This document shows, piece by piece, positions 18,214 to 19,266 of a stretch of 55,251 bases of DNA (position 1 is its first letter; each line of letters starts with the position of its first letter). The DNA lies in contig JBDRDF010000022.1 in assembly GCA_043821025.1 (NCBI GenBank), positions 1 through 55,251 on the forward strand, read 5' to 3'. The DNA is from Candidatus Omnitrophota bacterium. GTDB lineage: Bacteria > Omnitrophota > Gorgyraeia > Pluralincolimonadales > CAZUZR01. The notes under the pieces were generated by a model. It was not told the origin of the DNA. It saw nothing but the letters and a program-made list of their open reading frames with translations, and did not search any database. A program made the position numbers and the translations under genes.

Positions 18214-18318
18214 GATTAAATACAATTACTTAATTTTCAAAGAGTTACGAGAATCTGTATTTTTTTCCTTGGTCTCACTCTTTATCTCTAGTGTCCAAAT
18301 ATTGTCCATTTTTGGTTT

Positions 18319-18347
18319 ATTATAAGCTAAAGTAGTCAACATATCAA
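18319..18347 (-). promoter_or_regulatory. Sigma70 promoter for tRNA-Arg
   Basis: TTGATA-17 nt-TATAAT. Confidence 0.7.
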
Positions 18348-18445
18348 GGAAAATCCTAGAAGGGAATCTCAGTAGATTTTTATACTGACCCCTATCAACA
18401 AAAGGCGCGTTTTTTAGGTAGGTATCAAAATTATTTCATTTTTTC

Positions 18446-19069
18446 TTATTCGTAATTTTTCCTCAGACAAGGTGCAAGAAAATCTTTATCTAAAGGAATA
18501 AATTTATCACAGGCTCGGCGGATATGAAAACCTTTTGCGTCTTTGAAATGAGCGTTCTCGACATGCTTGCCCATATCCTTAACGCCCTCCACTGCTGCAA
18601 CGAAGTCAGCATCGCCAGTTACTAAGATGGCTGTATCATAGGCATTATTATAGGCGAGCCTCAACATATCGGCTGCTAAATTTATATCAATGCCTTTTTC
18701 GACAAAGGTGACAATAGTTTCTCCCATTTTCTCAATTATTATCTTCGCAATTTTTTCACCAAAGGTCTTAATGAGCTCCGTTTGATTTAATTTTACTACT
18801 CTCTTCTCAAGTCTCCCTAATTTTAATACAAAATATGGAAGGGTCTTTAAACTATCAAAAAATTTTTGTTGATCTTGGTAAATTTCGGGAAAAAATTTTT
18901 GATTAACAGGGACATTGTAATAATATGTCCTTATTAACTCTCTGTCGCCACAGAGAAGTTGAGCAAATTTTACGAAATCTATCTTTGTATTACCAATATA
19001 GTCTTTAAGGCCATGATAAAAGTTACTGCCATCAATAAAAATAGCTATTCTTTCTTTTTTGATTTCCAT
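18446..19069 (-). CDS. NYN-domain (LabA/DUF88, PIN fold) ribonuclease
   Basis: IFIDGSNFY, EKGID-L-D, LVTGDADF and G-V motifs. Confidence 0.9.
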   Translation of the reverse strand: MEIKKERIAIFIDGSNFYHGLKDYIGNTKIDFVKFAQLLCGDRELIRTYYYNVPVNQKFFPEIYQDQQKFFDSLKTLPYFVLKLGRLEKRVVKLNQTELIKTFGEKIAKIIIEKMGETIVTFVEKGIDINLAADMLRLAYNNAYDTAILVTGDADFVAAVEGVKDMGKHVENAHFKDAKGFHIRRACDKFIPLDKDFLAPCLRKNYE

Positions 19070-19081
19070 TGCCCCCTATGA

Positions 19082-19161
19082 AATAAAAACAGGGGGTTGA
19101 ACATGCAACCCCCTGGAGTTAATAACCCACCCTTGTAAAACAAGGATGGGGAGTTAATTCT
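19082..19161 (-). ncRNA. Candidate ~80-nt leader/antitoxin RNA: two (AUUAACUC + hairpin) units ending in a U-tract
   Basis: GGAGTTAAT repeats at 19115-19123 and 19150-19158. Hairpins at 19126-19150 and 19090-19115. The upstream promoter places the TSS at about 19161. Confidence 0.55.
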
Positions 19162-19167
19162 ATTATT

Positions 19168-19196
19168 AAAATAGCCAAAATTTTCGAAAATGTCAA
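19168..19196 (-). promoter_or_regulatory. Sigma70 promoter for the leader RNA + NYN gene
   Basis: TTGACA-17 nt-TATTTT. Confidence 0.65.
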
Positions 19197-19266
19197 GAAC
19201 TTTTTTCAATATAATTATACCACATTATTTTTCCAAATACAATTAATTTCGGTGTGAAAATCCACC

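Follow-up and report, generated by a model that had tools for sequence, protein, structure and literature searches.

A covarying hairpin RNA and a predicted NYN-fold ribonuclease share an apparently mobile cassette that resembles type III toxin-antitoxin systems in layout

The stretch studied here comprises 55,251 nucleotides (nt) from a Candidatus Omnitrophota bacterium (contig JBDRDF010000022.1 of assembly GCA_043821025.1, positions 1 to 55,251; hereafter the window), in which a predicted small RNA gene and the gene of a stand-alone NYN-domain protein lie side by side on the minus strand, between apt and a tRNA-Arg(CCT) gene. A preliminary description, made from the letters alone, had read from this locus a TTGACA-17-TATTTT promoter, two units that each join the motif AUUAACUC to a hairpin, the second unit closing in a U-run, and a ribosome-binding site (RBS) ahead of an NYN gene with intact acidic residues. 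We found each of these features where it had placed them (Table 1). A G-U pair in hairpin A does work on the minus strand only, as the opposite strand has an A-C mismatch at that place. Judging from the position of the promoter, transcription would start near 19161. Within the window, AUUAACUC has just two minus-strand copies, both in the RNA, and the hairpin B site is the sole terminator-like site between 17800 and 20000. For a 116-nt stretch, the predicted fold consists of these two hairpins and has an energy of -39.5 kcal/mol (z = -3.5); none of 200 shuffled sequences was as stable.

Table 1. Features of the RNA-NYN cassette, in coordinates of the window.
Feature	Position	Strand	Details or basis
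Sigma-70-type promoter of the small RNA, TTGACA-17 nt-TATTTT	19168..19196	-	scores 10/12
-35 element TTGACA	19196-19191	-	spacer to -10 element 17 nt
-10 element TATTTT	19173-19168	-	spacer to -35 element 17 nt
Single-stranded motif, copy 1, AUUAACUC	19151..19158	-	read from sequence
Hairpin A, CCCAUCCUUGU-UUU-ACAAGGGUGGG	19126..19150	-	11 bp including one U-G, loop 3 nt
Single-stranded motif, copy 2, AUUAACUC	19116..19123	-	read from sequence
Hairpin B, CAGGGGGUUG-CAUGUU-CAACCCCCUG	19115-19090	-	10 bp (7 G-C), loop 6 nt
Hairpin B with U-run (TTTTTATTT): second RNA unit and predicted intrinsic terminator	19081..19115	-	terminator-like site scan
RBS AGGGGG of the NYN gene	19072..19077	-	read from sequence
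NYN-domain nuclease gene, 207 amino acids	18446..19069	-	Pfam PF01936, E 1.9e-25
Interval of ~1.05 kb from the apt stop codon to tRNA-Arg(CCT), holding the cassette	18214..19266	-	missing in relatives

Counted within the window alone, the shorter of these elements do not exceed what shuffled sequences provide. The 8-mer count is 3 against 2.7 expected, which is not beyond chance, and promoter-like sites (13 against 5.4 expected) and terminator-like sites (1 against 1.9) fall within or near the range of the shuffles. Such counts would be expected if there were nothing special at this locus, that is, if the hairpins were the terminator of apt and both the promoter match and the 8-mer repeat had arisen by chance. 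We regard this explanation as extremely improbable, since the arrangement is conserved, with covariation, in related loci, where the same RNA stands beside NYN genes in dozens of unrelated contexts. The relatives also show what the locus looks like when the cassette is missing: in genomes G001 (same family), G003 and G006 (same order), the gap between apt and tRNA-Arg(CCT) is only ~15-35 nt and contains no such hairpins, while the corresponding 1,053 nt of the window hold the promoter, the RNA, the NYN gene and a tRNA-proximal promoter region. The reservation in the preliminary description that the hairpins might act only as the terminator of the apt operon is thereby ruled out, as apt abuts tRNA-Arg in relatives without the cassette. 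G001 does possess an RNA-NYN cassette of its own, on another contig.

The protein encoded by the cassette matches the Pfam NYN domain at 90.5 bits, against a cut-off of 24.2. An AlphaFold2 model built with 57 homologues reached a predicted local distance difference test (pLDDT) score of 95.9, and its best Foldseek matches are 2qip (E 1.3e-10, probability 1.00) and the NYN domain of MARF1 (6fdl and 5yaa, E 1.5e-5 to 8.4e-4); the family profile matches 2qip at E 2.2e-15. Both 2qip, which is the LabA-like protein VPA0982 of Vibrio parahaemolyticus, and the MARF1 domain share the fold and the acidic active site of the window protein, although 2qip, with 162-165 amino acids against 207, is ~40 residues shorter. 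Residues F11, D13, G14, N16, F70, K125, D128, D145, D153 and D155 are invariant in the 57 homologues. As the active-site residues, aspartates among them, are invariant across these sequences, the acidic pocket is intact, and we predict that the NYN protein is an endoribonuclease.

The preliminary description had proposed looking for the hairpins and their covariation upstream of NYN homologues, and the homologues do carry them, with compensatory changes. The nearest NYN homologue in the genome collection lies in another Candidatus Omnitrophota genome (L016; NYN protein 88-89% identical). This locus and the one in G001, which belongs to the same family but another genus (L002; 48-49% identical), have the same promoter, with TTGACA at the same place, as well as both hairpins and the U-run, and compensatory changes are visible in both stems across the two. 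Metagenome contigs were also scanned with a protein alignment, and the best 80 loci of 467 confirmed relatives were kept; most of these 80 show the same upstream structure. Known RNA families do not account for it: Rfam 15 gave no match on the RNA strand of the window up to E = 10, nothing on the RNA in 17 loci reached an Rfam gathering score, and the only Rfam overlap in the window is a chance-level match to a eukaryotic small Cajal body-specific RNA on the opposite strand.

Twenty-nine non-identical RNAs were aligned by MAFFT, blind to structure. RNAalifold recovered the two hairpins from this alignment, and 14 of its 20 pairs show compensatory changes. When the structure was specified instead, 94.7% of cells could pair, compared with 34-48% (maximum 48.3%) after the partners were slid by one to three columns; both partners change in 15 of 21 base pairs, and the covariation score was matched by none of 500 shuffles. 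Compensatory changes occur in six of the nine inner pairs of hairpin A and in nine of the 11 pairs of hairpin B. At the tops of both stems, U-A and U-A followed by a G-C (or A-U) pair are nearly invariant, and the loops vary freely in length and sequence, a pattern that fits a protein that would read the stem and not the loop. Around the RNA, a promoter-like site scoring at least 9/12 lies within 70 nt on the 5' side in 37 of 55 loci, and a U-run (at least five U in eight positions) follows on the 3' side in 46 of 55. Alternative pairings that could act as an antiterminator or sequester the RBS, sought by eye in the window, L016 and L002, are not conserved.

We then used a covariance model of the RNA (R1) to search 96 sources totaling 380,720 bases. 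On the window, the model scores 89.4 bits on the sense strand and 26.7 bits on the antisense strand. In the window, L002 and L016, a match adjoins NYN, and so it does in 57 of the 80 metagenomic loci (E <= 1e-3); L075 and L085 match more weakly. Among the 80 loci are two that lack any upstream sequence. Viral contigs are included: two of the eight viral-contig loci (L102 and L103) carry the RNA together with NYN. In all 380,720 bases, the sole match away from an NYN-adjacent site is a weak one in L098 (E 0.12). The model found the RNA beside none of 11 distant NYN paralogues from relatives (L003-L013). In phage and plasmid collections we encountered just distant NYN proteins, with at most 31% identity, and in the three plasmid loci fetched the model found nothing below E = 0.01. 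We regard it as very probable that the RNA is a specific partner of the NYN protein.

Among 63 RNA-bearing loci, the RNA stands upstream of NYN on the same strand in 57, directly ahead of the gene and within tens of bases of its start codon. This is also where a cis-acting leader or attenuator would be found, in which case the NYN protein would bind or cut its own 5' leader, the terminator would throttle synthesis, and no toxin or antitoxin would be involved. The E. coli genes rne, rnc and pnp are autoregulated through their leaders and thus offer a precedent for a structured 5' leader ahead of a ribonuclease gene, and the U-run terminators noted above would suit an attenuator as well. However, the RNA keeps its link to NYN from other positions. 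Four loci (L029, L034, L054 and L102) have it downstream in convergent orientation; L046 has it downstream on the strand of the gene, and L085 upstream in divergent orientation. L075 was tallied as upstream on the same strand, with R1 scoring about equally on its two strands (26.3 against 24.9 bits); by eye, its motifs lie on the minus strand, making it divergent like its sister L085. The other arrangements, six or seven loci in all, arise in at least four places on a quick IQ-TREE tree of 74 NYN relatives. The convergent RNA of L054 comes with a TTGACA-16-TAAAAT promoter-like site and a U-run of its own, and that of L029 is preceded, by eye, by TTGACA and TTTAAT and followed by a U-run, although the promoter scan scored it just 7/12. 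In L029 and L034, NYN directly follows the preceding open reading frame (ORF), and no leader is visible in the 170 nt upstream.

The RNA also occurs without the gene. When 151 genomes of the phylum were searched for the RNA itself, three had it, the source genome included, and in the other two, G112 and G160 (completeness 86% and 95%), no NYN gene was detected, either next to the RNA or in the rest of the genome. The RNA of G112 precedes an insertion sequence (IS) transposase gene and a Fic gene, and that of G160 has DUF7309, DUF6036 nucleotidyltransferase-like and PRiA4_ORF3-like genes around it. The RNA is therefore independent of the NYN mRNA, and the persistence of its link to NYN on the other strand and on the other side of the gene argues for a partner that acts in trans, as in toxin-antitoxin (TA) systems of type III. 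With its own terminator, its repeat arrays, its moves between strands and its occurrence without the gene, the RNA differs from the rne, rnc and pnp leaders, and we consider autoregulation in cis an unlikely account of the cassette.

The RNA is built of units, each consisting of an 8-nt single-stranded motif and a hairpin. Folding gave one hairpin per array in L039 and L092, two in most loci, and three in L077, L073, L030 and L022. Tandem Repeats Finder reported a 39-nt unit (2.1 copies, 90% identity) in L077 and, in L073, a 36-nt unit in 2.3 copies. It reported no repeat in the window, where the two units have diverged and nothing but the 8-nt motif and the stem top UUG/CAA is common to both. 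The repeat-built RNA of the preliminary description thus holds for relatives, which have arrays of one to three units, and not in the strict sense for the window, whose two units form no true tandem repeat. Across the 29 aligned RNAs, the 9 nt before hairpins A and B differ on average by 2.28 within an RNA and by 3.51 between RNAs. None of 10,000 permutations gave a value as low, a statistic that is inflated by kinship among the RNAs. In five of the six rows of one clade (L071-L088), both copies are of the AUAGCAGCC type and not AUUAACUCC. The direction of this concerted change points to a motif that would be read twice by the same partner. Separately, motif variants that read AUCACCUCC had prompted the idea of anti-Shine-Dalgarno or 16S 3'-end mimicry, which was dropped because both copies are of the AUAGCAGCC type throughout an entire clade.

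The association and the concerted motif change would fit any specific pair of RNA and protein, including one in which the RNA is a product or cofactor of the nuclease: the NYN protein might mature it, the two might form an active ribonucleoprotein, or the RNA might be a sponge that buffers a housekeeping ribonuclease. There is precedent in a CRISPR-associated NYN enzyme that is described as trimming CRISPR RNA intermediates (bioRxiv 10.1101/2024.04.08.588522), and the orphan RNAs of G112 and G160 could point to a function that belongs to the RNA itself. On the other hand, the single-stranded motif is conserved rather than variable, so that it is no guide, and the source genome (1.1 Mb) holds one RNA copy, with no other R1 match, and one NYN gene. 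The distribution of the cassette is patchy and mobile, unlike that of a housekeeping factor. We judge a product or cofactor role to be improbable.

A close NYN homologue (E <= 1e-40) is present in just two of 61 sampled relatives, one of them being the source genome. A Pfam scan of neighbors, covering 130 ORFs at 25 loci, identified HsdM with a SIR2_2-like gene (L036), HsdM with an AAA_14 ATPase (L067), an Eco57I/TaqI-type methylase (L047), a methylase with RE_MjaI (L053) and other methylases (L052 and L103), as well as HicB with HNH (L042), a Mu transposase (L063), and Bro/ANT, Peptidase_M78 and helix-turn-helix genes (L102). The neighbors of L027, L055, L092, L024 and L073 are ordinary metabolic genes. 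From this distribution, together with the presence or absence of the cassette between apt and tRNA-Arg, the cassette is evidently accessory and mobile. An RNA that acts in trans, a motif that appears to be read twice and a mobile cassette together fit an RNA-protein pair better than a cis regulator.

To our knowledge, type III is the only class of TA system in which an RNA directly inhibits a protein, and the toxins of its three recognized families have one common fold. The layout of these systems comprises a single promoter, a small RNA built of repeats, a Rho-independent terminator and an endoribonuclease gene (PMC5086642). As predicted from sequence, the same order of promoter, RNA of one or more units, terminator and putative nuclease gene is found in the NYN cassette, and the type III layout proposed in the preliminary description not only holds in the window but generalizes to its relatives; the units are 35-39 nt long in arrays of one to three, and the cassettes are found on chromosomes, among defense and mobile genes, and on viral contigs. 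What does not carry over is the toxin. ToxIN, CptIN and TenpIN, families delimited by the homology of their toxin sequences, are described as the only ones recognized as of October 2026 (PMC13682666). The window protein has an NYN, or PIN-like, fold and is no relative of ToxN, CptN or TenpN; no ToxN, CptN, TenpN or AbiQ chain is among the Foldseek matches listed. The NYN fold is therefore outside the three recognized toxin families, and the relation to type III systems is a resemblance in layout, not membership. The cassette differs further in having two unit types, A and B, in that its last unit doubles as the terminator, and in that its RNA gene may occupy the opposite strand or flank the nuclease gene at its other end.

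We give roughly even chances to the reading that the cassette encodes a type III TA-like pair with an NYN-fold nuclease. It would be a self-contained mobile module, consisting of an ~80-nt RNA gene with its own promoter and terminator and the gene of a stand-alone ribonuclease, and the RNA, with its one to three units of an 8-nt single-stranded motif and a 10-11-bp hairpin, would most likely hold the nuclease in check, as the RNA antitoxins of type III TA and abortive-infection systems do. Most transcripts would end at hairpin B and read-through would yield little NYN mRNA, leaving the RNA in excess. The NYN protein would bind the RNA by reading the single-stranded motif and the conserved UUG/CAA hairpin top, would be inhibited by it, and may process it by cutting at the motif (AUUAACUC in the window). 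Loss of the presumably short-lived RNA would release the nuclease, which would then be toxic and might have an anti-phage role.

Among known NYN proteins, one close parallel is HEC-09, an NYN candidate described as embedded in Hachiman systems (bioRxiv 10.1101/2024.01.29.577857). The PADLOC model of HEC-09 is matched by the window protein in two stretches (E 2.5e-19). Both are stand-alone NYN proteins resembling the MARF1 NYN domain, and several homologues of the window protein lie in or beside restriction-modification genes, whereas the window gene itself lies between apt and a tRNA gene and not within a defense system. A further difference is that no RNA partner is mentioned for HEC-09, the main text of its description using 'non-coding RNA' or 'ncRNA' 0 times (bioRxiv 10.1101/2024.01.29.577857). 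In the literature outside subscription journals, we found no pairing of NYN with an RNA antitoxin, an upstream RNA motif or a type III TA system, and no RNA partner of 2qip.

Several observations weigh against a toxin-antitoxin pair. In E. coli, HEC-09 is reported not to have protected against the phages tested (bioRxiv 10.1101/2024.01.29.577857). Ordinary housekeeping genes are the neighbors in about half of the loci surveyed. On the tree, 19 of the 74 NYN relatives have no detectable RNA, 13 of them in three well-supported clades, and those of the RNA-less relatives that are in the protein alignment retain the invariant acidic residues; a toxin without an antidote is not expected, barring another antidote. 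In L029 the NYN gene starts, by eye, ~20 nt after the stop codon of a preceding ORF that resembles the 3' end of leuB, which suggests, as far as this call by eye goes, that NYN may be steadily co-transcribed there with a housekeeping gene. The A and B unit types persist in the window and most loci, in contrast to the near-identical repeats of classical type III arrays, and the RNA is predicted to form simple hairpins, whereas the solved ToxI RNA is described as pseudoknotted (PMC5086642).

A further form of the proposal is that the cassette represents a fourth type III TA or abortive-infection family, the first with an NYN (PIN-like) toxin, whose hairpin RNA antitoxin of one to three units would be recognized through the 8-nt motif and the stem top, and which would occur in uncultured bacteria, in loci with archaeal-looking promoters (by eye) and on viral contigs; we hold this tentatively, at somewhat less than even chances. 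Fifteen years on, type III systems are still described as having three toxin families (PMC13682666). If the proposal is correct, the same layout has been assembled on an NYN nuclease, meaning that this design evolved more than once, and a large group of genes annotated as "NYN domain-containing" would gain a function. RNA catalogs would gain an uncatalogued family with strong covariation. The RNA may also be the missing component that explains the negative defense result of HEC-09, and there would be a concrete reason to retest NYN defense candidates with the RNA that flanks them. At ~80 nt plus ~0.6 kb, the pair is small and thus easy to test.

Several further observations concern the NYN genes and their promoters. 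Five NYN genes, from four independent lineages, are intact save for one in-frame stop codon, which is TAG each time (L028 753-1290, L035 2989-3530, L034 568-1100, L049 516-1070 and L070 1603-2179). L028 and L035 are the same sequence, so that there are four events and the recurrence of TAG is suggestive at most. Genome-wide recoding of TAG was rejected: on three of the five contigs (L028, L035 and L070) TAG also terminates neighboring ORFs, which read-through would lengthen by only 14-37 residues. The in-frame stops may mean that a harmful gene was recently inactivated, or they may be amber switches that act conditionally; under the proposal of a fourth family, they could even be such switches and no sign of decay. 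By eye, TTTATATA-type boxes replace the TTGACA promoters 5' of the RNA in L024, L027, L028, L035, L036 and L047, which suggests archaeal promoters, and possibly archaeal hosts, for part of the family; the homologue search also returned matches from an uncultured archaeon and from Methanothrix. A second, extended -10-like element was seen by eye in the window at 19214-19224 (minus strand), ~20 nt 5' of the -35 element of the RNA promoter. This element, TGTGGTATAAT in the window, takes the form GGTATAnT or GTTATACT in relatives; it is kept across the NYN clade of the window (L016, L019, L021, L025, L041 and L002), and may be a tandem promoter or an operator.

Other leaders and elements were noted beside more distant or RNA-less NYN genes. 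Two plasmids of cultured bacteria carry NYN genes, 26-31% identical, behind multi-hairpin leaders with repeated short motifs, recognized by eye: in L112, a 3,461-bp E. coli plasmid (NZ_CP091696.1, 150-413), the leader has CAACCUC-like motifs, and in L113, a Carboxydocella plasmid (CP028515.1, 2280-2495), AUUAA-like motifs. The former is a small ColE1-type plasmid, in which RNAI was found, and offers a possible experimental handle. In the RNA-less clade L094-L098, another conserved sequence, TATTTTACCCGCCAATTATAACAT, lies by eye ~100-170 nt 5' of NYN and could be another partner element.

Two further short elements were noted. The 12-mer GGGGTCAGTATA, with TTTGTT a few bases to its 5' side, lies just 3' of NYN in the window (18381-18392, minus strand) and ~350 nt 5' of the cassette of G001 (L002 2456-2467, minus strand), and none of the other fetched loci contains it; it may be the mark of a cassette boundary or a site of recombination. 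The 22-nt element ATGGACAnTnTTTGGACACyA, in which TGGACA forms a direct repeat, has three copies in the source genome (window 18288-18309, minus strand; contig C52 34601-34622; contig C38 44-65) and a further one in L016 (2287-2308). Two of its copies lie ~75-95 nt 5' of tRNA genes, namely tRNA-Arg in the window and tRNA-Ala on C52, and the element may be a regulator site for tRNA promoters.

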